64,000 nucleotides of DNA from Candidatus Omnitrophota bacterium (GCA_028717245.1 JAQUOD010000001.1:309324-373323); one strand, 5' to 3'. Shown: positions 14,167 to 57,683, counted from the stretch's first letter. Program-made: numbers and translations. Notes: a model not told the origin generated them from the letters alone.

Positions 14167-15609
14167 TTAAGATATTCTTATATCCTCTATATTGAGGCTG
14201 GGGTCAGCTACGGTATTAACTTTCACCCTGAATTTACGCTCAATAAAACGCAGGTGCTCTTTATCTCTTAGAACCTCATCAGCCACGGCAGGATTCAATA
14301 TAATCTTAGCCTCTTTTATAGACTTACCTTTGAGGAATCTCCTTAGCTCTTTAAGCGCGTAAATGGACATGGTCACTGGGGATTTAATCCTGCCCTTTCC
14401 CTGGCAGTAATGGCAGGCCTGATAAGAAAGCATCTGGACAGTCCTGTGTATGCGTTCACGGGTCATCTCTATCAGCCCGAATTTGGAAATACCCTCAATA
14501 TCGTATTTTGCCTTATCATTACTTAATTCTTTTTTGAGCACGTTTAAGACTTCCCGGCGGTGAGATTCCTTTAACATATCAATAAAATCTATGACGATTA
14601 TCCCTCCGAGGTCGCGCAATCTTAATTGGTGGGCAACCTCAATGGCTGCTTCGCAGTTTACCTTAAACGCCGTCTCTTCCTGTTCGGTTTTCTTCCTGAA
14701 ACCTCCGCTATTTACATCGATAACCACCAGGCCCTCGGTAGGCTCGATTATAATATATGCCTTTGATTTTAAATAGATCTTATTCTCAAAAATCCTGCTT
14801 ACCTGTCTTTCAATATCCTTATCTTCAAAGAGGCTATCTCCCCGGTATAATTCTACCCTGTTAGAGAGGTATCTTAAGAACGTGCTGATAAAACGGTGTA
14901 TCCGGCGGTATTCTTCTTTGGAATCTACAATTAATTTAGTAACGTCTTCGGTAAAAGAATCGCGTATCGCCCGCAGGGTCAAATCGTACTCCTCATAGAC
15001 AAGGGAAGGCGCTTTCTTCGCGCGGATTATTTTCTCAATCCTCTTCCATAACTTAATCAGAAAATTAGCATCCCTGAGCAATTCTTTCTTAGATTTACCC
15101 TGCGCAGCTGTGCGCACAATAAAACCCATATCCGTAGGCAGTTTTAATTCATGGAATATTGTTTTAAGGCGCATCCTCTCAACATCATCCTCTATCTTAC
15201 GCGATATCCCTACCTGATGGTCTTGGGGCATAAGCACCAGGTACCTTCCCGGAAGGCCGATATGGGTAGAAAGGCGCGGGCCTTTTGTGCCGAATGATTC
15301 TTTCACTACCTGCACCAGGACTTCCTGGCCCTTCTTGACTTCACGGGGGATATTCTCTTGTGGCGTTTCCACGAATTCAAAAGCAGATTCTATCTCGGTT
15401 AAGTATAAGAAACCTTTCTTGGGTAAGCCTATATCGACAAAGGCGGCGCCGATATTGGCAAGGGCTGCTTCGATTTTACCCTTATAGATATTACCGACTA
15501 TAGTCTTATCCTGCGGCCGTTCGATATAAAATTCTTCCAGGCGGCCGTCATTAACTATGGCTACCCGCTTTTCCTGCGGTTCAATATTAATCAATATCTC
15601 TTTAGGCAT
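14167..15609 (-). CDS. rng: ribonuclease E/G family (RNase G-like)
   Basis: N-terminal S1 domain plus RNase E/G catalytic core (DIDGGxxxxKK-like region), 480 aa. Confidence 0.85.
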   Translation of the reverse strand: MPKEILINIEPQEKRVAIVNDGRLEEFYIERPQDKTIVGNIYKGKIEAALANIGAAFVDIGLPKKGFLYLTEIESAFEFVETPQENIPREVKKGQEVLVQVVKESFGTKGPRLSTHIGLPGRYLVLMPQDHQVGISRKIEDDVERMRLKTIFHELKLPTDMGFIVRTAAQGKSKKELLRDANFLIKLWKRIEKIIRAKKAPSLVYEEYDLTLRAIRDSFTEDVTKLIVDSKEEYRRIHRFISTFLRYLSNRVELYRGDSLFEDKDIERQVSRIFENKIYLKSKAYIIIEPTEGLVVIDVNSGGFRKKTEQEETAFKVNCEAAIEVAHQLRLRDLGGIIVIDFIDMLKESHRREVLNVLKKELSNDKAKYDIEGISKFGLIEMTRERIHRTVQMLSYQACHYCQGKGRIKSPVTMSIYALKELRRFLKGKSIKEAKIILNPAVADEVLRDKEHLRFIERKFRVKVNTVADPSLNIEDIRIS

Positions 15610-15919
15610 ATTCTCTGGTTTCTTTTATAAAAATTCCTTCTGGTAACTGTTTTTGCAGCCTTTCCTGAAAATCCCGGGGGTCAACTGGCTCCCTTAAAGT
15701 AAAGGTCGCTTCTTCGCAATCGCTTTCTATCCCTAATTTCAAAGCGCGTTTAATGCTGATTTTAGGATGCGGGCTGAAGCCTTCGGTAATTTTAATCGGC
15801 AGTTCTGCCCGGCGTAATGCCCGCATAAATAAACGCATCAGGTCCAGATGCGATATGTATTTCATCGGGCCTTTTTTGCTGAATACGATATTCGCCTTAG
15901 GTATAATCCTATTTTTCAT
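15602..15919 (-). CDS. DUF2344/TIGR03936-like protein, N-terminal half only
   Basis: 105 aa. KGPMKYISHLDLMRLFMRALRRAELP matches the start of the radical-SAM-associated DUF2344 family. Overlaps the rng start. Confidence 0.6.
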   Translation of the reverse strand: MKNRIIPKANIVFSKKGPMKYISHLDLMRLFMRALRRAELPIKITEGFSPHPKISIKRALKLGIESDCEEATFTLREPVDPRDFQERLQKQLPEGIFIKETREYA

Positions 15920-16032
15920 ATCTCTAAGCGCTATTGTAAGTTACTGTAACTTAATAGTCAAGGAAAAACAAAGCGGCTGCCTTGTCTTGCTTTCTCATAA
16001 GCACCGCTTTAGTTTTCACTTAATAAGAAGCA

Positions 16033-16413
16033 GCGGGTCCTGCCGTGGGGGCGCCTCTCGTCAAATTTTCCTCGAGGCATCCCCCGCGTCACCCGCTGGA
16101 CATATTTAACCAGACAGTCTAAGTCCGTTCGTATCTTAAAGATGCTGTTCGAAAACACCCAAGCCACCCGCTAAATATGAATCTGACGAGTCACAATAAA
16201 TGAATCTGGCGGTTTTCGAGCGAATGGAGGTTTTAGCCAATGGAGCTTGAGCATTGAGGGAATCCCCGTGGAGCGAAGCGACAAAACGGGGATGGCGAAG
16301 CTGTTTGAGCAGCATTTGTTAGAACAAATGCTGCGAGTTCTGCAGCCACCGAAAATGCGAAAGATCATTGGCGTTAAAAAACCGACTTGAGCGAGAAAAC
16401 TGACAGATTCATT
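16033..16413. repeat. modular intergenic element, copy A (candidate structured ncRNA or MITE-like repeat)
   Basis: Shares a 5' module with copy B: GCGGGTCCTGCCG...GAGGCATCNCCCGCGTCACCCGCT. Carries the core AAATGAATCTGGCGGTTTTCGAGCGAATGGAGGTTTTAGCCAA and a 3' CAGATTCATT that pairs with the core. A/B differences are compensatory in stems. Confidence 0.7.
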
Positions 16414-16447
16414 GAATTGTTGCTTATGTTTATGGATAATATAAAAT

Positions 16448-16486
16448 AAAAAGGGCGAAGTGTTTTTTTTGCTTCGCCCTTTTATC
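16448..16486. terminator. bidirectional intrinsic terminator (GGGCGAAG-loop-CTTCGCCC flanked by A-run and T-run)
   Basis: 8-bp GC-rich stem 16453-16460/16472-16479 with T8 loop. TTTTAT follows on plus; TTTTTATTTTAT follows on minus. Terminates the pilin gene, and possibly a plus-strand transcript of copy A. Confidence 0.8.
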
Positions 16487-21584: not shown

Positions 21585-23849
21585 TTATCGCACTACAGAA
21601 GCTGATTGCGAGCCGGGCTTAGGCGCATGATAATCTTGATTAAAATTAAACTCCAGCTCAGGAAATGCCTTTAGCCTAAAAACAAACCAGATGCTTTCGC
21701 CGTAGCCTCTTTTAACATTGTAGGTAACATCCCAAGTCCAACAGTGTAAATCTCTGGATATGGTATATTCCTGTTCTCTTAAACCCCTGGCCCTATTCGT
21801 TTCGTGCCCCCTATAGTATCTCTGATAAGCCGAGAACTTCCATTTAGGAGTCAAGCGCCACTTTAGATCATAGGTTATTTCATTGCCGCCTTTTATCTCA
21901 TAACGCTGCCCTACCCCGAATGAGCGTTCATTCCCAAAATCAAAATTAATATCATAATTACCGTTAGAGAAATGGTTGTATTTAGGGTCAGAGCGGGCCC
22001 CGGAATGCGTATAGGTGGCATCAGCATCTATATGCATCCATGAATATGGCAAGATTCGCAAATCAAAGAGGACATCAGAGAAGCCGCTGCCCCGCTTACT
22101 CCTTCCTTCCGAGATAGATTTAGGTTTATATACATAGGAGGTATTGATGCGTAAATCCGCAAAATCCACGCTTTTATTATTACGTTTTGTCTGCAGTTTA
22201 TTGGATATTTCAAAAGCCGGAGAGTTGCTGCTGGTATCAATCGTATCTACATCATCTATCTGCCTAAGCTTAGCGCTTCCTATGGTAGGCTCGTGACGAT
22301 AGGTATAACTTACGGTAGGCGTAATGATATGCCTTAAGCCGTTTATATCTAACCCTAAAAAGTTGCTCTTTATATCAAATATACGGTAAAATTTAGTGCT
22401 CATATCCGCCCCGCCATAAAAAATAGTGCGCGGGGCTTCGTCGGAAGCGCTAACCGCCTTTTTATCGTAAAAGGTCAGGCGGTCCATAACAAAAGGAGTG
22501 AAATTGATAAAAGCTACCTTCATAGGTATGGACAGCTTATTACTGGTATCCAGCCTGTCCACGTGGGCATCAGGATTAGTATCGTTTGCCGTAGGCGTCA
22601 TGGTGCTGGTGTTCTTCTTATTATAACTGCCCGCAGAAGTAGTATCTTCAAAATAAAATGGGCTGTCTAAAATCTGGTAACTGGGCAGGCTATATTTTAC
22701 TTCGGGGAGCTTTTCCAAATAACCCGGGTCATACCAACGGTTAGTACGTTTCTGCACAAGTATATCTAAGCTGGAATAATTGAAACTGTGGTGCAATAAG
22801 GCATAACTCAGCGGTTGGCTATCCTTTTCGTATTCACGATAGAAATAATCTTTCAGAAAATTATATGTAGGGCCCTTGATCGCCATCTTAGAATCCGTAA
22901 TTTTATAATATTCTGAGGTAAAATCTGTTCTTTCGTCTATAGTCCACTTGTGCCGCCAACGGATAAGGTATCTTTGGAATATTCTGGGATTGCTATTGTC
23001 TTTGGGAAGGGTATGGTCTCTTTCCTGGGTATAATAATATTTGAAATCGCCTCTTCCGAAATTTTCACTTTTATAATTAGCCCCAAAACCTTCTGCTACG
23101 CCGAGTTTAGTGCGATAATCCAGGTAAATCCTGCCGTTGATATTATCGGTAAAGCTGTATCTCCAGGCGCTGAGCATATAAGGGCCCCATTCTTTTTTCT
23201 TACCGGGCGTTAACTGCACGTGCGCCATCGGGTCCTTCAGGTTATGGTTGTATCGGGGAAGATACAATATGGGCACCTTACCTATGTAGAAAGCATTATC
23301 CTTAGCCTGGATCTTGTCATTCGGAAAAACATCTATCTTTCCGGATTTAATACGGTAATGGGGATTATCATAACTACAAGTGGTAAAATATCCCCGGTTA
23401 GCTATAAATTCGCTATCGCTCACCTTCTCTACGTTCTCTGCCCTGCCGAAATAGGGATTAGCCCGAAAACCTGAATCAATAATAATGCCTTTCTTGGTCT
23501 GGAAATTATATTTTATTTTTTTTCCCTCTACTATCCCTTCCTTATCTTCCAGCCTGACATCGCCTTCGGCCTGTGCATCCTTAGTCTGGGTGTTTACGCT
23601 CAACTTATGGCAGGTCAGCTTGCTGCCTTTATAGATTACCGATACGTTTCCCGTAGCAGTCACTTCTTTGGCATCGGTAGAATATTCAACCGTATCGCCG
23701 TTCACAATAATAGCTTCGTCTTTTTTCTCTTGGGCGTATAAGCTGTAAGCTGTAAGCTGTAAGCTGTAAGCGAAAATAAAAAAGGACAGTGAAATCATCC
23801 TAAGAAATTTCAACTTTTGAACTGTGATTTCTAATTTATGACTTATCAC
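21585..23849 (-). CDS. lptD: LPS-assembly protein LptD (OstA family)
   Basis: 754 aa with OstA N-domain and large beta-barrel region. The annotated GTG start is doubtful; an internal ATG (MISLSFFIF...) about 16 codons downstream fits a signal peptide better. Confidence 0.8.
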   Translation of the reverse strand: MISHKLEITVQKLKFLRMISLSFFIFAYSLQLTAYSLYAQEKKDEAIIVNGDTVEYSTDAKEVTATGNVSVIYKGSKLTCHKLSVNTQTKDAQAEGDVRLEDKEGIVEGKKIKYNFQTKKGIIIDSGFRANPYFGRAENVEKVSDSEFIANRGYFTTCSYDNPHYRIKSGKIDVFPNDKIQAKDNAFYIGKVPILYLPRYNHNLKDPMAHVQLTPGKKKEWGPYMLSAWRYSFTDNINGRIYLDYRTKLGVAEGFGANYKSENFGRGDFKYYYTQERDHTLPKDNSNPRIFQRYLIRWRHKWTIDERTDFTSEYYKITDSKMAIKGPTYNFLKDYFYREYEKDSQPLSYALLHHSFNYSSLDILVQKRTNRWYDPGYLEKLPEVKYSLPSYQILDSPFYFEDTTSAGSYNKKNTSTMTPTANDTNPDAHVDRLDTSNKLSIPMKVAFINFTPFVMDRLTFYDKKAVSASDEAPRTIFYGGADMSTKFYRIFDIKSNFLGLDINGLRHIITPTVSYTYRHEPTIGSAKLRQIDDVDTIDTSSNSPAFEISNKLQTKRNNKSVDFADLRINTSYVYKPKSISEGRSKRGSGFSDVLFDLRILPYSWMHIDADATYTHSGARSDPKYNHFSNGNYDINFDFGNERSFGVGQRYEIKGGNEITYDLKWRLTPKWKFSAYQRYYRGHETNRARGLREQEYTISRDLHCWTWDVTYNVKRGYGESIWFVFRLKAFPELEFNFNQDYHAPKPGSQSASVVR

Positions 23850-23892
23850 TTATAGCTTATAGCTTATAACTTATAGCTTATAACTTATAACT
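23736..23892. repeat. two tandem short-repeat blocks at the lptD 5' end: (GCTGTAAG)x4.5 at 23740-23771 inside the coding region, and (CTTATAR)x7 at 23841-23892 across the start
   Basis: Read directly from the sequence. The in-frame octamer block encodes AYSLQLTAYSLYA in the LptD signal-peptide region. Confidence 0.9.
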
Positions 23893-24537
23893 TCACTTGG
23901 GGATTTTCTTATAATCCTCCAGGAACCTCTGGACGCCTATGTCCGTCAAGGGGTGTTTTATCAGCTGTTCGATGACGGCAAAAGGTATGGTGGCGATATC
24001 TGAGCCGATCTTTGCCGCCTCTACTACATGCAAAGGATTACGGATAGAAGCTACGATTATCTGGGTCTTAAAATTATAATTGGAGTAGACCTGTTTTATA
24101 TCGCGGATCAAATCCATTCCTACCTGGCTTATATCATCCAGCCGGCCGATAAAGGGCGATATATAGTCTGCCCCGGCCTTGGCCGCGAGTATTGCCTGTG
24201 AAGGAGAAAAACAAAGCGTAACATTTGTTTTTATTCCTTTTTCGGAAAGAATTTTTACTGCCTTAAGTCCCTCCTTAACCAGGGGAACCTTAATCACGAT
24301 ATTCTTGGCAATCTTAGAAAGCTCTAAGGCCTCAGCGACCATGCCGTTAGCTTCCAAAGATATAACCTCTGCGCTTACCGGGCCATTTACCAATGAACAT
24401 ATCTCTTTTAATAATTCGCCTGCCTTACGGTTTTCTTTTGCGATTAGGCTGGGATTGGTGGTAACCCCGTCTATGACACCTAAAGCTACTGCCTCTTTTA
24501 TATCTTTTACATTCGCGGTATCAATGAATATTTTCAC
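23893..24537 (-). CDS. tal: transaldolase (fructose-6-phosphate aldolase-like short form)
   Basis: [16 protein letters not shown]...TTNPSL; GTG start. Confidence 0.9.
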
Positions 24538-25516: not shown

Positions 25517-25563
25517 AGTTATTTATTCTATATGAAAGTTACGATAATTTCAATAGATAATAT

Positions 25564-25874
25564 TTTAGCGGGTCCTGCCGCGTGAGCGCCTCTCGCCAAA
25601 TTTGGCTCGAGGCATCTCCCGCGTCACCCGCTAAAGATAAATATGTCAACTTGCAACAAATGAATCTGGCGGTTTTCGAGCGAATGGAGGTTTTAGCCAA
25701 AGCAGCTTGAGTGAACGAGGGAATCCGAACGCGGAAGCATTCGGACAGCGAGGATGTTTGAGCCCGTCCTGGCGAAGCCGACGGGCGAGTTCCGCAGCTG
25801 CCGAGTTCACGAAAGACCTTTGGCGTGCCCGATAGGGCAAAACCGACTTGAGCGAGAAAATCGACAGATTCATT
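25564..25874. repeat. modular intergenic element, copy B
   Basis: Begins TTTAGCGGGTCCTGCCG and ends CAGATTCATT. Has the same core as copies A and C, plus the conserved TTTGAGC-hairpin-CGAGTTC module with a different stem sequence than A. Confidence 0.7.
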
Positions 25875-25889
25875 TGTACGGTAGGCTTG

Positions 25890-32998: not shown

Positions 32999-33007
32999 TC
33001 TTAGTTT

Positions 33008-33046
33008 TAAGCTGTAAGCTTTAAGCTTACGGCTTACTGCTTAAGA
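33008..33046. repeat. GTAAG-family heptamer tandem repeat / hairpin in the dnaK-dnaJ intergenic region
   Basis: AGCTGTAAGCTTTAAGCTTACGGCTTACTGCTTAAGACTTACC. Contains a 9-bp stem GCTGTAAGC/GCTTACGGC with loop TTTAA. Confidence 0.7.
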
Positions 33047-34960
33047 CTTACCACTTTTATCATCTTCTTCCTTAAAATCCGCGTCTATAATATCTTCGTC
33101 TTTTCCGCCGGAGGCGGATCCGCCTTCGGCGGACTTCTTATCCTCTGGCTCTTCAGTTTGCTCCTGGCCTCTTGCACCTTGCGCCTGGCCCTGTTGCTGC
33201 TGTTTCTGCGCTGCCTGCTTATATATTTCTTCTGCTAATTTATGCGAGGCCTTGGTTAAATCCTCTGAGCCCCTTTTGATCCTATCAACGTTCTTATCTT
33301 TTATAGCTGCCTTAAGGTCATTGAGCTTTGCTTCTATATCTAAGCGCTCTGCCTGGGAGACTTTATCGCCGAATTCTTTCAGGGATTTCTCCGTAGCGTA
33401 AACAAGATTGTCTGCCTGGTTAATGACTTCTACTTCTTCTTTCTTCTTTGTGTCTTCGGCGGCAAACTTTTCCGCATCCCTGACCATCTTATCGATTTCT
33501 TCTTTAGAGAGCTTCTTGGGTGCGGTAATGCGTATGGATTGTTCTTTGCCTGTGCCTAAATCCTTGGCAGAAACGTGCACAATCCCGTCACGGTCAATAT
33601 CAAATTTTACCTCTATCTGCGGAACGCCGCGCGGAGCCGCGGGAATACCTACCAGGTCAAACCTGCCCAATTCCACGTTATCATCGGCCATCTGGCGTTC
33701 GCCCTGAAGCACGCGGATAGTCACCGCCGTCTGATTATCGGCAGCTGTGGAAAATATCTGGCTCTTTTGCGTAGGGATAGATGCGTTTCTTTCAATCAAT
33801 TTTGTATCTACTCCGCCTAAGGTTTCAATACCGAGGGATAGCGGGGTAACATCCAAAAGCAATACATCTTTAACATCCCCCTTTATAATCGCTGCCTGTA
33901 TTGCAGCGCCTAAGGCAACGCACTCCATGGGGTCGACTCCGCGCTCTATTTTCTTGCCGACATAATCCTCGACAAATTTCTGCACGATAGGCATACGCGT
34001 AGGCCCGCCGACCATGATAATCCTGTCTATATCTTTGGGCGTCAATTTGGCATCGCTGATTGCCTGCTCCATGGGGTGGCGGCACCGGTCAATTATAGGC
34101 GAAATCAAATCCTCTAATTTTGCGCGGGTGATGGTCATGGTTAAATGCTTAGGGCCGGTGGCGTCTGCCGTGATAAAAGGTAAATTGATATCCGTGCTTA
34201 CCGTAGAGGATAATTCTATCTTGGCCTTCTCCGCTGCCTCGCGTAACCTCTGCACAGCCATCTTGTCATTCATCAGGTCTATCCCGGTTTCGCGTTTAAA
34301 TTGCCCGGCAATATGTTCAAGTAATACCTTATCCATATCTGTGCCGCCTAATTGCGTATCGCCTGATGTTGACTGCACATGGAATACGCCTTGAGCCATT
34401 TCCATTATAGTGACATCCAGGGTTCCGCCGCCTAAATCAAAGACCATGATCTTCTGCTCTTTCTGCGCTTTTTCAAGGCCATAAGCCAGGCAGGCTGCGG
34501 TCGGTTCGTTTATAATCCTTAATACTCTTAAACCCGCTATTTCACCGGCATCCTTAGTAGCTGTCCTCTGGTTATCATCAAAATATGCGGGGCAGGTAAT
34601 TACCACTTCCTCAACTTTATCTCCGAGATACGCCTCCGCATCCTGCTTTATCTTTTGCAGGATAAAAGCGGAGATCTGTTGCGGCGTATATTCCTTGCCG
34701 AAAACTTTAAACTTAAAGTCAGTACCCATCTTACGTTTAGCAGCTTGTATAGTACCTTCTGCGTTAATTGCTGCCTGGCGCCTAGCCGGCTCGCCGACTA
34801 AACGCTGGCCGTCTTTGGTAAAAGCAACGTAAGAAGGGAATGCCTTGCCTGATGCCACGCCCGCGCCTTCGGCAGACGGGATTATTACGGGCCTGCCGCC
34901 TTCCATCACTGCTGCTGCCGAGTTAGATGTCCCTAAGTCAATACCTATCACTTTAGCCAT
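33041..34960 (-). CDS. dnaK: molecular chaperone DnaK
   Basis: [16 protein letters not shown] and VGGPTRMP Hsp70 signatures. Confidence 0.97.
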
Positions 34961-34987
34961 ATTGCACCTCCGTAAATTTTAAATTAT

Positions 34988-35080
34988 CCAATTGCTAAAT
35001 CCCAATTAATTTCCAATTATTCAATTACCAATTGTAGAATTGGGCATTGGTAATTTATTGGACATTGGAAATTGGGAATT
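34988..35080. repeat. CCAATT/AATTGG palindromic element, copy 1, in the dnaK leader
   Basis: 4-5 x CCAATT, then 5 x ATTGG inverted. About 93 percent identical over about 95 nt to the copy at 51105-51210. Confidence 0.85.
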
Positions 35081-39094: not shown

Positions 39095-39895
39095 TTAAGG
39101 AATGATCTTTGTGGGATAACCTTCGCCTGAAAGTCGATTTTCTAATTGCGTTGCTTCCGAGCGTAACTTTAATCTTCCGACCTTAACCCGGTAGACCCTG
39201 GCATCATTCATCTGGGCCTCTTCGGTATAGGCATCGTATCCTCTCTTGATTAATTTATCGCGTAGATTCCCGGCATTTGAGGCCTTTGCAAACGAGCCTA
39301 CCTGTACGGTATAGTATATATCCGTAAGAGAATACAGTTCCTTATCTAATTTTACTTCAAGGCTGGAAGGAAAATTTTTCTTTAGTTTGTCCAGGTATTC
39401 TTTTGCCTGCTGGGTATCCCCTGTCTTGAATCCGATCTGGCTGAGCCGGTAATAAAGCGAAGCGGTAAATCTTGTGCGGGGGTCAACATTTAAGAGTTCT
39501 TTGTAGTAATCTTGCGCCTTAACGTATTCGCCTCTTAGGAAATAAGTGTCGCCTAACCCTACCTGCGCGCCTTCCGTAAAAGGGCTATTTTTGAATTCTT
39601 TAAGTAATATTTCAAATATATCCGAAGCACGCAGATAATTACCGTCCTTAAGATAACTTAAGGCCAGTATATAATACAGCTCTTCCAGGCCAGAATGGCT
39701 GCCGCTATAATTAGCTAAGGCCTTTTCGCCTGCTGATATAGCGGACTTGTAATCGCCGTTTAAAAAGGAAACCTTAACCTTATCAATATCTAAGGCATAA
39801 GCACTGTTACAAATCACAATACACAATACACAAATTATAAATAATACCCATTTCCGTAAGCTGTAAGTGGTAAGCTGTAAGCCGTAATTTAACAT
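39095..39895 (-). CDS. TPR-repeat protein with C-terminal SPOR (peptidoglycan-binding) domain
   Basis: TPR motifs. C-terminal YTVQVGSF...YRVKVGRL matches SPOR. The N-terminus is encoded by a GTAAG heptamer repeat. Confidence 0.7.
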   Translation of the reverse strand: MLNYGLQLTTYSLRKWVLFIICVLCIVICNSAYALDIDKVKVSFLNGDYKSAISAGEKALANYSGSHSGLEELYYILALSYLKDGNYLRASDIFEILLKEFKNSPFTEGAQVGLGDTYFLRGEYVKAQDYYKELLNVDPRTRFTASLYYRLSQIGFKTGDTQQAKEYLDKLKKNFPSSLEVKLDKELYSLTDIYYTVQVGSFAKASNAGNLRDKLIKRGYDAYTEEAQMNDARVYRVKVGRLKLRSEATQLENRLSGEGYPTKIIP

Positions 39896-51095: not shown

Positions 51096-51104
51096 AATTC
51101 AATT

Positions 51105-51210
51105 TCCAATTAGCCAATTGCCAAATCCCAATTAATTTCCAATTATTCAATTACCAATTGTAAAATCGGTCATTGGTAATTTATTTGACATTGGAAATTG
51201 GTAATTGGCC
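51105..51210. repeat. CCAATT/AATTGG palindromic element, copy 2; its right arm encodes the last 10 codons and the stop of lipA
   Basis: Near-identical to copy 1. The lipA frame reads through ATTGG repeats to TAA at 51181. Confidence 0.85.
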
Positions 51211-57186: not shown

Positions 57187-57302
57187 CTGGTAATAAAATT
57201 ATTAAATAGACGGAATGAATTTATAAAATATCACAAACAGTGGGAGAATGCAAGAGATTTTAGGCTTCCGCTAAAATCCGTAGATATATATAGCAGTTTA
57301 AC

Positions 57303-57675
57303 GGGTCCTGTCTTGGCTTGTTCTCGCAGCATCGCTCGAAATTCCCAGCGTGAATTTCTCGCTTCGTGAAACTTCTCGCTCTCGATACTAAGCAGGGGCG
57401 AAACGAACCTTGCCCGCTCGAACTTTCAAGATGCTGCTGAAAAACATGCCTCGTTACCCGCTAAAGATAAATATGCTAATTTACAAATGAATCTGGCAGT
57501 TTTCGAGCGAACGTTAGCATTTAGTGGGTGGCTTGGGTGTTTTCGACAGCATGTAGTTTGTGCGAACGGCCAGGGTTCACCCGCTACCACAAATATCAGT
57601 GAGAGTGAGCACAAACTCCAAGCGATCCGCCGTAGGCGGAGAGCGGTGCTGGAGAAAATACCCAAGACAGGACCC
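57303..57675. repeat. modular intergenic element, copy C, bounded by perfect 14-bp terminal inverted repeats GGGTCCTGTCTTGG / CCAAGACAGGACCC
   Basis: Shares with A/B the core TTACCCGCTAAAGATAAATATG...CAAATGAATCTGGCAGTTTTCGAGCGAA. Shares with A the AAGATGCTG.T..GAAAAACA module. Confidence 0.75.
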
Positions 57676-57683
57676 ACTACCTC

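Follow-up and report, generated by a model that had tools for sequence, protein, structure and literature searches.

The window analysed here, a stretch of 64,000 nt, comes from a Candidatus Omnitrophota bacterium; Omnitrophota are widespread, mostly uncultured and very small bacteria. It contains three intergenic elements on the + strand, copy A (16033-16413), copy B (25564-25874) and copy C (57303-57675), found where the first-pass annotation had placed them. The copies sit between - strand genes, and their flanks encode DUF2344/RNase G/L21, a pilin-like protein, ROK kinase/transaldolase, two GGDEF proteins, thioredoxin/pta and a BNR-repeat protein. GC skew on the + strand is about -0.11 throughout the window; the G-rich strand is thus the one that carries the genes, and the elements are on its complement. 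The DUF2344 protein (15602-15919, - strand) has 105 aa, matches only positions 2-96 of the 176-position Pfam profile and overlaps the RNase G gene start; the protein is perhaps naturally short, or its gene truncated.

A 26-nt core, AATGAATCTGGCRGTTTTCGAGCGAA, has exactly three exact occurrences in the window and no match in 100 shuffles with up to three mismatches permitted. A direct-repeat scan recovers the pieces common to copies A, B and C, and searching the window with profiles and a covariance model found no sites beyond these three. The common core had initially been described as roughly 45 nt long. Its exact 26-nt part holds in all three copies; the longer version merges parts of two modules, a hairpin (H), which contributes its 3' arm, and a rod, whose 5' strand (K) begins there. 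In copies A and B the rod carries a further domain, T1. The parts of the three copies are as follows.

16032-16097, + strand: H module of copy A, a short hairpin closed by AGCGGGT/ACCCGCT with a conserved CCTG...(T/C)C internal loop, 86% identical to that of copy B
16098-16196, + strand: debris between H and K of copy A, with parts of a second long-type H and of the core start
16141-16177, + strand: 3' arm of the second long-type H within this debris, GATGCTGTTCGAAAACACCCAAGCCACCCGCTAAAT, a 94% match to the inverted H of copy C
16175-16187, + strand: partial duplicate of the core start within the debris, ATATGAATCTGAC
16197-16415, + strand: 3' module of copy A (K rod and T1), covariance-model score 226 bits
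16199-16221/16391-16413 and 16226-16233/16379-16386, + strand: helices P1 and P2 of copy A
16236-16242/16366-16372 and 16246-16259/16349-16363, + strand: helices P3 and P4 of copy A
16263-16292 and 16309-16334, with 16297-16300/16340-16343, + strand: hairpins Pa and Pc of copy A, with Pb
25564-25636, + strand: H module of copy B, a short hairpin, TTTAGCGGGTCCTG...CACCCGCTAAA
25637-25656, + strand: AT-rich linker of copy B, of a kind that varies in length and sequence across the family
25657-25876, + strand: 3' module of copy B (K rod and T1), covariance-model score 249 bits
25659-25681/25852-25874 and 25686-25693/25840-25847, + strand: helices P1 and P2 of copy B
25696-25702/25818-25824 and 25706-25720/25801-25815, + strand: helices P3 and P4 of copy B
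25724-25745 and 25762-25786, with 25750-25753/25792-25795, + strand: hairpins Pa and Pc of copy B, with Pb
57298-57470, + strand: long H of copy C (H1), oriented as the H of A and B, profile score 123 bits, E 4e-37
57485-57511, + strand: first half only of the core in copy C, AAATGAATCTGGCAGTTTTCGAGCGAA, with neither 3' partner strand nor T1
57519-57679, - strand: second long H of copy C (H2), inverted relative to H1, profile score 108 bits

Copies A and B are collinear across the 5' hairpin, which is 86-89% identical between them, and a 3' module of about 215 nt that ends in CAGATTCATT in both, in agreement with the modules first recognised. The long-H profile covers 16032-16174 in copy A. 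Paired segments of A are replaced by different paired segments in B. Two such replacements had been proposed earlier and can be read directly in the sequence: the stem GGGGG/CCCCC in A against GAG/CTC in B, and the hairpin between TTTGAGC and CGAGTTC, which is a different one in each copy. Further cases are GCCAATG/CATTGGC in A against GCCAAAG/CTTTGGC in B and GCATT/AATGC against GTGAAC/GTTCAC. The likeness originally drawn among all three copies holds for A and B but not for C, which is built as H1, half a core and inverted H2. It has in common with A and B only the type of 5' hairpin and the first core half, and possesses neither T1 nor the CAGATTCATT end. Between the end of H2 and the convergent gene's stop codon (57684) lie 5-9 nt. 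The peptide noticed earlier in spurious ORFs is indeed present in - strand ORFs lying on the repeats; the element itself is non-coding.

Further copies were retrieved from species-representative genomes and metagenomes with an exact 20-nt core pattern. The genome scan yielded 22 loci. Half of them (11/22) belong to Candidatus Omnitrophota, from groundwater, lakes, deep mines, springs and single-cell genomes, and the remaining 11 are chance matches in coding sequence of unrelated bacteria, with dissimilar surroundings. Some 33 of the 47 loci from the metagenome scan are real. This gives about 44 further copies in total, all in Candidatus Omnitrophota genomes or metagenomes, and what had been taken for a local, three-copy feature is a family spread across Omnitrophota. 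Viral contigs, phage records and plasmids gave no core matches, and a phage or plasmid origin was rejected. Retrieval relied on an exact 20-mer, and this ascertainment accounts for the invariance of K and for some of the conservation seen overall. Diverged cores were found by adjacency in two loci (L002 and L054), and the true extent of the family certainly exceeds this sample. Nine contigs from metagenomes (L024, L025, L035, L042, L046, L054, L055, L057 and L068) stop about 50 nt or less from K, a sign of assemblies broken by the repeat and of undercounted copies in MAGs. As the first-pass annotation had supposed, the elements correspond to no known RNA: Rfam 15 gave no matches in the whole window at the gathering score, none for copy B even at E<=10, and none at E<=0.1 for five related loci with H, T1, T2 (described below) and minimal forms. 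A full-text literature search returned no description of Omnitrophota ncRNAs or repeats. The three elements are thus real copies of an undescribed multi-copy Omnitrophota family of folded non-coding elements.

The core unit of the family is an imperfect rod of about 90 nt closed by AAATGAATCTGGCGGTTTTC/GAAAACCGACAGATTCATTT. Its 5' strand, K, reads AAATGAATCTGGCGGTTTTC-GAGCGAA-UGGAG..., and its 3' strand ...CGACUU-GAGCGA-GAAAAYCGACAGATTCATTT. K is the 5' strand of a long helix whose partner in most copies is ...CGACTTGAGCGAGAAAAYCGACAGATTCATTT. Where GAGCGA stands opposite GAGCGA, the rod reads as two tandem G·A pairs flanking a G-C/C-G step within a continuous helix. GGAG opposite CGAC makes another tandem G·A, for which L009 and L044 have Watson-Crick GUCG/CGGC instead. 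The tip of the rod is a variable slot occupied by a plain hairpin, T1 or an inverted H. Rods range from 90 to 340 nt, and the insert between K and its partner strand consists of 20-250 nt of non-coding structure. A plain hairpin produces the 90-nt minimal elements (L012, L006), and an inverted H fills the slot in L040 and L066. T1 is the commonest filling (copies A and B of the window and about 25 others). It is a three-way-junction domain of about 150 nt made up of P3, P4 and a junction, from which hairpin Pa and an arm of Pb, internal loop and Pc extend; several of its helices are flanked by UGA...GA(G/A). A K-turn in T1 was considered on account of UUU and GA...GA by hairpin Pc, but there is no Watson-Crick C-stem and the arrangement is not canonical. 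The covariance model built from the 21-copy alignment described below recovers 27 full copies of this type (type I), as well as minimal and truncated forms, among the retrieved loci.

T2 is a different domain of about 190 nt that follows K without a closing strand (L017, L021, L029, L053, L058, L062 and L065; for example, 6503-6730 in L017 and 4398-4605 in L065). It has a second conserved fold, with invariant stretches including GGATTTACGAGGAG and GAGTAAACCGTAGCAGACGGCAAAAA. Its 3' part, ACGGCAAAAAATTTCAGCGCG...GCAAAATA, stands alone after type-I elements in L006, L014, L032 and L063 and is inverted upstream of K in L023, L045 and L053. H, a second hairpin of rod-like form, is either short (67-74 nt) or long (160-254 nt). 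It is closed by (T)TAGCGGGT/ACCCGCTAA, has a conserved CCTG/CC internal loop and mostly begins with TTAGCGGG; GTAG is found at the 5' end in a few copies only. The interior of H, TTTCTCGC...GCTCGAAA, is the reverse complement of the rod motif. When H lies upstream of K, the two are separated by a non-conserved AT-rich linker of 12-40 nt. It is also found inverted downstream of K (window copy C, L002, L060, L073) and alone (L001, L034, L048/L065, L072, L074).

The fold was derived from an alignment of 21 type-I 3' modules. RNAalifold predicted 61 pairs, 25 of them with compensatory changes. After three doubtful pairs were removed and a 3-bp helix was added from a column-pair scan, 59 pairs were counted. 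Across the 21 copies, 97.4% of the cells in these pairs are paired, against 88.2% in shuffles, which overstate the significance, since many of the loci were sampled in similar sediments and are possibly closely related, and 36-49% with slid partners, a control that does not have this problem. Changes on both sides are seen in 26 of the 59 pairs (13.6 in shuffles, 2-6 with slid partners). The covariation score is 0.278 compared with 0.110 in shuffles, none of 500 shuffles reaching as high, and all helices contribute to the signal. This larger alignment therefore bears out the proposal, first made from the three window copies, that the elements are structured and under selection.

The strand on which selection acts can also be recognised. 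Among non-Watson-Crick cells, 28 are G·U, at 16 positions, whereas only six are A·C, at four positions. The strand carrying K in the sense orientation (K-sense) folds more stably in all 21 copies, by 10-26 kcal/mol (mean 16.5), and its consensus energy is -57.8 kcal/mol against -43.9 for the complement; it is also purine-rich. The outer 20 nt of the two rod strands are complementary at about 19 of 20 positions. Mismatches are biased by strand (28 G·T against 6), and the non-complementary GAGCGA is conserved on both strands; the rod arms thus seem to act as a folded helix and not as duplicated transposase sites. Selection for folding acts on a single strand, the K-sense one (+ in the window). 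T2 conforms to this pattern, the K-sense strand being more stable in 7/7 copies and 10 of 33 pairs showing double changes. For H, energies point instead to the reverse complement, the more stable form of 7/7 short and 9/10 long hairpins, but the G·U and A·C counts conflict. Unpaired positions of T1 are as conserved as paired ones (42% and 32% invariant columns, respectively).

Two other accounts of K were considered. A small protein starting ATG AAT CTG GCG GTT TTC GAG CGA (MNLAVFER...), with the variable core base at a third codon position, was rejected: it is contradicted by loss of the ATG in L006, L032, L035 and L044, and changes of the L009 type (N to P, EV to SI) are compensated in the helix instead. 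A sigma-54 promoter was suggested by TGGC-N9-GC, which fits the GG-N10-GC spacing, but the -12 TTGC is GAGC; K pairs with its partner strand with compensatory changes and is therefore part of the folded strand.

Placement relative to genes is strongly biased. By approximate, ORF-based calls, 29 of the 37 informative copies run antisense to the two co-oriented housekeeping genes around them, and eight have the opposite orientation. The median distance from the 3' end of the rod to the convergent stop codon is 20 nt, and in four cases the two abut or overlap. In L040 and L054 the RBS of the next gene is 15-20 nt from K, which means that the gene-strand transcript must cross the element or start in it. 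This arrangement is what one would expect of a cis-acting mRNA feature, whose reverse complement, in a 3' UTR or operon spacer, would act as a REP-like stabiliser or terminator hairpin. We regard such a role as quite improbable, since the gene strand is the less stable one by the margin given above and has the wrong G·U bias, a separate terminator divides copy A from the upstream gene, and the oppositely oriented copies do not fit. Nor do the copies hold a fixed position upstream of a co-oriented gene of consistent function, as a riboswitch or leader would; the genes beside them have housekeeping roles and are unrelated to one another. When the ORFs of 44 loci were clustered all against all, no recurrent partner gene emerged; the clusters were syntenic housekeeping genes and spurious repeat ORFs, with no transposase, TnpB/IscB or reverse transcriptase among them.

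The following transcription signals were noted beside the window copies.

15961-15933, - strand: promoter of the neighbouring gene at copy A, TTGACT-17-TACAAT, outside the element
25553-25525, - strand: promoter of the ROK gene at copy B, TTGAAA-17-TAGAAT, outside the element
25532-25561, + strand: sigma-70-like site at copy B, ATGAAA-18-GATAAT, a consensus match only
16449-16483, both strands: terminator-like hairpin with an A-run and a T-run, GGGCGAAG...CTTCGCCC, between copy A and the convergent pilin-like gene

The sigma-70-like site of copy B overlaps the divergent ROK promoter, and its predicted start is at the first bases of H; a consensus scan found no comparable + strand promoter for A or C. 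The bidirectional terminator reported after copy A is present as this hairpin and T-run, which has weak Rfam matches to terminator-bearing sRNAs on both strands. Its simplest role is to terminate the pilin-like gene, and a + strand transcript of copy A could stop there too. Neither B nor C has such a hairpin; they end 9-16 nt from the convergent stop codon, with no terminator. Across the family neither a conserved promoter nor a conserved terminator was found; transcription of the K-sense strand is therefore inferred, though probable.

These signals bear on the reading of the elements as a family of trans-acting structured ncRNA genes, in which each K-T1 or K-T2 unit would be independently transcribed, the rod serving as a protein-binding handle and the distal domain as the seat of activity (a scaffold, sponge, ribozyme or ligand binder, for example). 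Copy number would then reflect dosage or sub-functionalisation, and mosaicism recombination between paralogues. Strong covariation, conserved junction nucleotides, the purine-rich sense strand and conservation across MAGs of very different habitats agree with such genes, as do the site placed to start copy B, the terminator after A and, by eye, hexamers resembling a -10 box that precede many H modules by 7-12 nt and a TAAAAT-like box where K starts. We nevertheless consider it doubtful, given the lack of conserved promoters and terminators, the ends of B and C so close to convergent stop codons, and the frequency of truncated and debris copies, of modules in both orientations and nested, and of orthologous sites that differ or are empty.

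This variability is seen most clearly when spacers between the same genes are compared. At one orthologous site with alignable flanks, L048 carries K, T1 and the closing strand and L065 carries K-T2. We compared the GGDEF-ROK spacer, the site of copy B, with that of four related genomes whose ROK proteins are 71-81% identical. Five states occur in the five genomes: H and K-T1 in the window, a 5' piece of H with other repeats in L071, a core remnant and an inverted long H in L073, only a long H in L072, and an unrelated palindromic element in L070. The ROK promoter beside this spacer is conserved in all of them. The BNR-thioredoxin spacer, the site of copy C, has three states: H1, half K and H2 in the window, one short H by the stop codon, in the same place as H2 of copy C, in L074, and an empty spacer of 94 nt in L075. 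Presence/absence polymorphism, as expected of mobile repeats, is therefore found at two orthologous spacers. Across the family, modules occur inverted, nested, alone, swapped or as fragments. The discrete three-copy ncRNA gene envisaged in the first-pass annotation is not supported, in view of this exchange, the differences between orthologous sites, the lack of conserved promoters or terminators, the antisense position of most copies, frequently right beside a stop codon, the contigs that break at K and the missing partner gene. In short, the family is multi-copy and lacks a linked protein gene, and related genomes have gained, lost and re-assorted its members.

No target-site duplications were seen on inspecting flanks or on comparing filled and empty spacers, which are too diverged for base-exact junctions; the insertion signature of a plain MITE, named at the outset as the finding that would undo the structured-RNA proposal, is thus not seen. 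A clean filled/empty junction was likewise not found in the two orthologous spacers, the flanks being too diverged to align, and none of the approximately 45 Omnitrophota loci has an autonomous copy with a transposase gene between the same ends.

Missing target-site duplications are also compatible with a non-autonomous single-stranded DNA transposon of the REPIN/RAYT or IS200/IS605 PATE kind. Here the rod and H would be folded ssDNA substrates of an unlinked HUH/Y1 enzyme, pairing would be kept for mobility, and T1 and T2 would be passengers. Strand-specific folding, orientation bias relative to genes and GC skew, the inverted doublet in copy C, presence/absence polymorphism, and an extragenic, multi-copy distribution adjoining other palindromic repeat families all agree with it. 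Such a transposon is unlikely, since the modules measure 70-220 nt instead of 20-40 nt and lack a regular GTAG/CGTC tag, about 45 loci showed no RAYT or TnpA gene, and the conserved multi-branch T1 would be left unexplained. Moreover, the folding strand lies opposite the genes and is by GC skew the leading-strand template, which is reportedly the reverse of the strand preference of IS200/IS605.

A stand-alone guide-RNA scaffold resembling omega-RNA, serving a TnpB/IscB-type or other RNA-guided protein encoded elsewhere and using the flank as guide, would account for multi-copy, RNA-like elements of 200-300 nt with a long rod and variable domains, dispersed with no linked gene. Stand-alone omega-RNA copies are reported from other phyla. 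No tnpB- or iscB-like ORF overlaps or adjoins a copy in about 45 loci, the HEARO and IS605-orfB RNA families do not match, and half-cores and inverted modules misfit a layout of scaffold plus guide; we judge this reading very improbable. The guide-RNA and mRNA-element readings each fail a test in this analysis.

Several other repeats share the intergenic space. A second, unrelated family in the window (34975-35080 and 51101-51206, intergenic, 92% identical) is an AT-rich imperfect palindrome of about 100 nt rich in CCAATT/AATTGG units. Tandem heptamers, (TAAGCTG)n/(TAAGCTT)n and the variant GCTTATA, lie at gene boundaries directly upstream of - strand start codons (102-135, 23739-23773, 23846-23895, 33001-33049 and 39857-39887 of the window) and recall the STRR heptamer repeats of cyanobacteria. 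Further palindromic families, an inverted repeat of the GGGGACAGTCCCC type and one of the AAAATGGGGTCAGAATTATTTTT type, occur beside K elements or in orthologous spacers at the following places.

L031, about 700-770
L052, about 1100-1150, - strand
L058
L059, about 2710-2790
L071, 2760-2990
L070, 2800-2990

The intergenic DNA of Omnitrophota carriers seems to be a patchwork of several repeat families.

Taken together, we put at about even odds (a probability near 0.5) that the elements are a lineage-specific, non-coding interspersed family of Candidatus Omnitrophota, built from a few hairpin modules, moved as DNA and expressed from the K-sense strand. Copies would spread or be exchanged as DNA among intergenic sites, recombination at the conserved K segment would swap the distal modules, and any enzyme involved would act in trans. 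In the usual arrangement, K-sense transcription might arise from divergent firing of the neighbouring gene's AT-rich promoter. Its product would be a purine-rich structured RNA of 220-380 nt, running antisense to the upstream gene's 3' end, and the helix/tandem-G·A repeats of this RNA may form a surface recognised by an unlinked protein. Against this account stand the missing transposition footprint and the multi-branch folds of T1 and T2 with their conserved junction nucleotides, features unusual for selfish DNA repeats and typical of functional RNAs. It is possible, though rather unlikely, that K-T1 and K-T2 are a new class of bacterial structured RNA, 220-380 nt long, with helix/tandem-G·A units around a conserved three-way junction, carried as a mobile RNA gene that works with a trans-acting protein as a guide, scaffold or catalytic RNA.

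Whichever holds, the family is abundant enough to break metagenome assemblies, and it takes up much of the scarce intergenic DNA, with three copies in the 64 kb of the window, otherwise a tightly packed housekeeping region. The signature of selection on a folded single strand is clearer than in classical bacterial repeats. If the elements act as RNA, they are a new class of large structured RNA with swappable domains; if they act at the DNA level, they are an unusually elaborate REP/BIME relative, implying a mobilising enzyme not yet known. In either case, the covariance model is ready for annotating Omnitrophota genomes, and the family is a marker of assembly problems.

Among known systems, orphan multi-copy structured RNA motifs in Rfam resemble the family in being lineage-restricted, with covariation-supported folds and conserved loops. 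The Omnitrophota architecture, unlike theirs, is not fixed and is polymorphic at orthologous sites, and it is absent from Rfam 15. With omega-RNA/HEARO of the IS200/IS605 kind it shares a strongly structured non-coding unit of 200-300 nt present in many copies per genome, with a long closing helix and variable internal domains. The differences are that no locus has an IscB/TnpB ORF or an Rfam match and that half units and inverted modules are common. BOX of Streptococcus pneumoniae, ERIC and Correia elements are likewise intergenic, consist of few modules varied in number and order, and have predicted RNA folding and co-transcription with neighbours. They belong to different phyla and have no homology to the Omnitrophota family, whose modules are also inverted and nested and whose covariation across many genomes far exceeds what recent copies would be expected to show; terminal inverted repeats with target duplications, as in Correia and ERIC, were not seen in it. 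REP/BIME/REPIN sequences are similar in several respects: they are extragenic, multi-copy, imperfect palindromes with maintained pairing and no linked gene, in alternating orientation with variable linkers (copy C being an inverted doublet), often just after stop codons and variable between related genomes. REP units, however, have 20-40 nt compared with 70-220 nt for the Omnitrophota modules, which lack the regular GTAG/CGTC tag and any sequence similarity to them, and no recurrent ORF of the RAYT (Y1 transposase) type was found on clustering the ORFs of the retrieved loci. T1, with its conserved three-way junction and invariant unpaired bases, is a further difference. The elements are structure-constrained interspersed repeats of the broad REP/BIME, BOX and MITE class, much more elaborate than its known members, and they behave like a mobile or recombining family instead of one conserved RNA gene.
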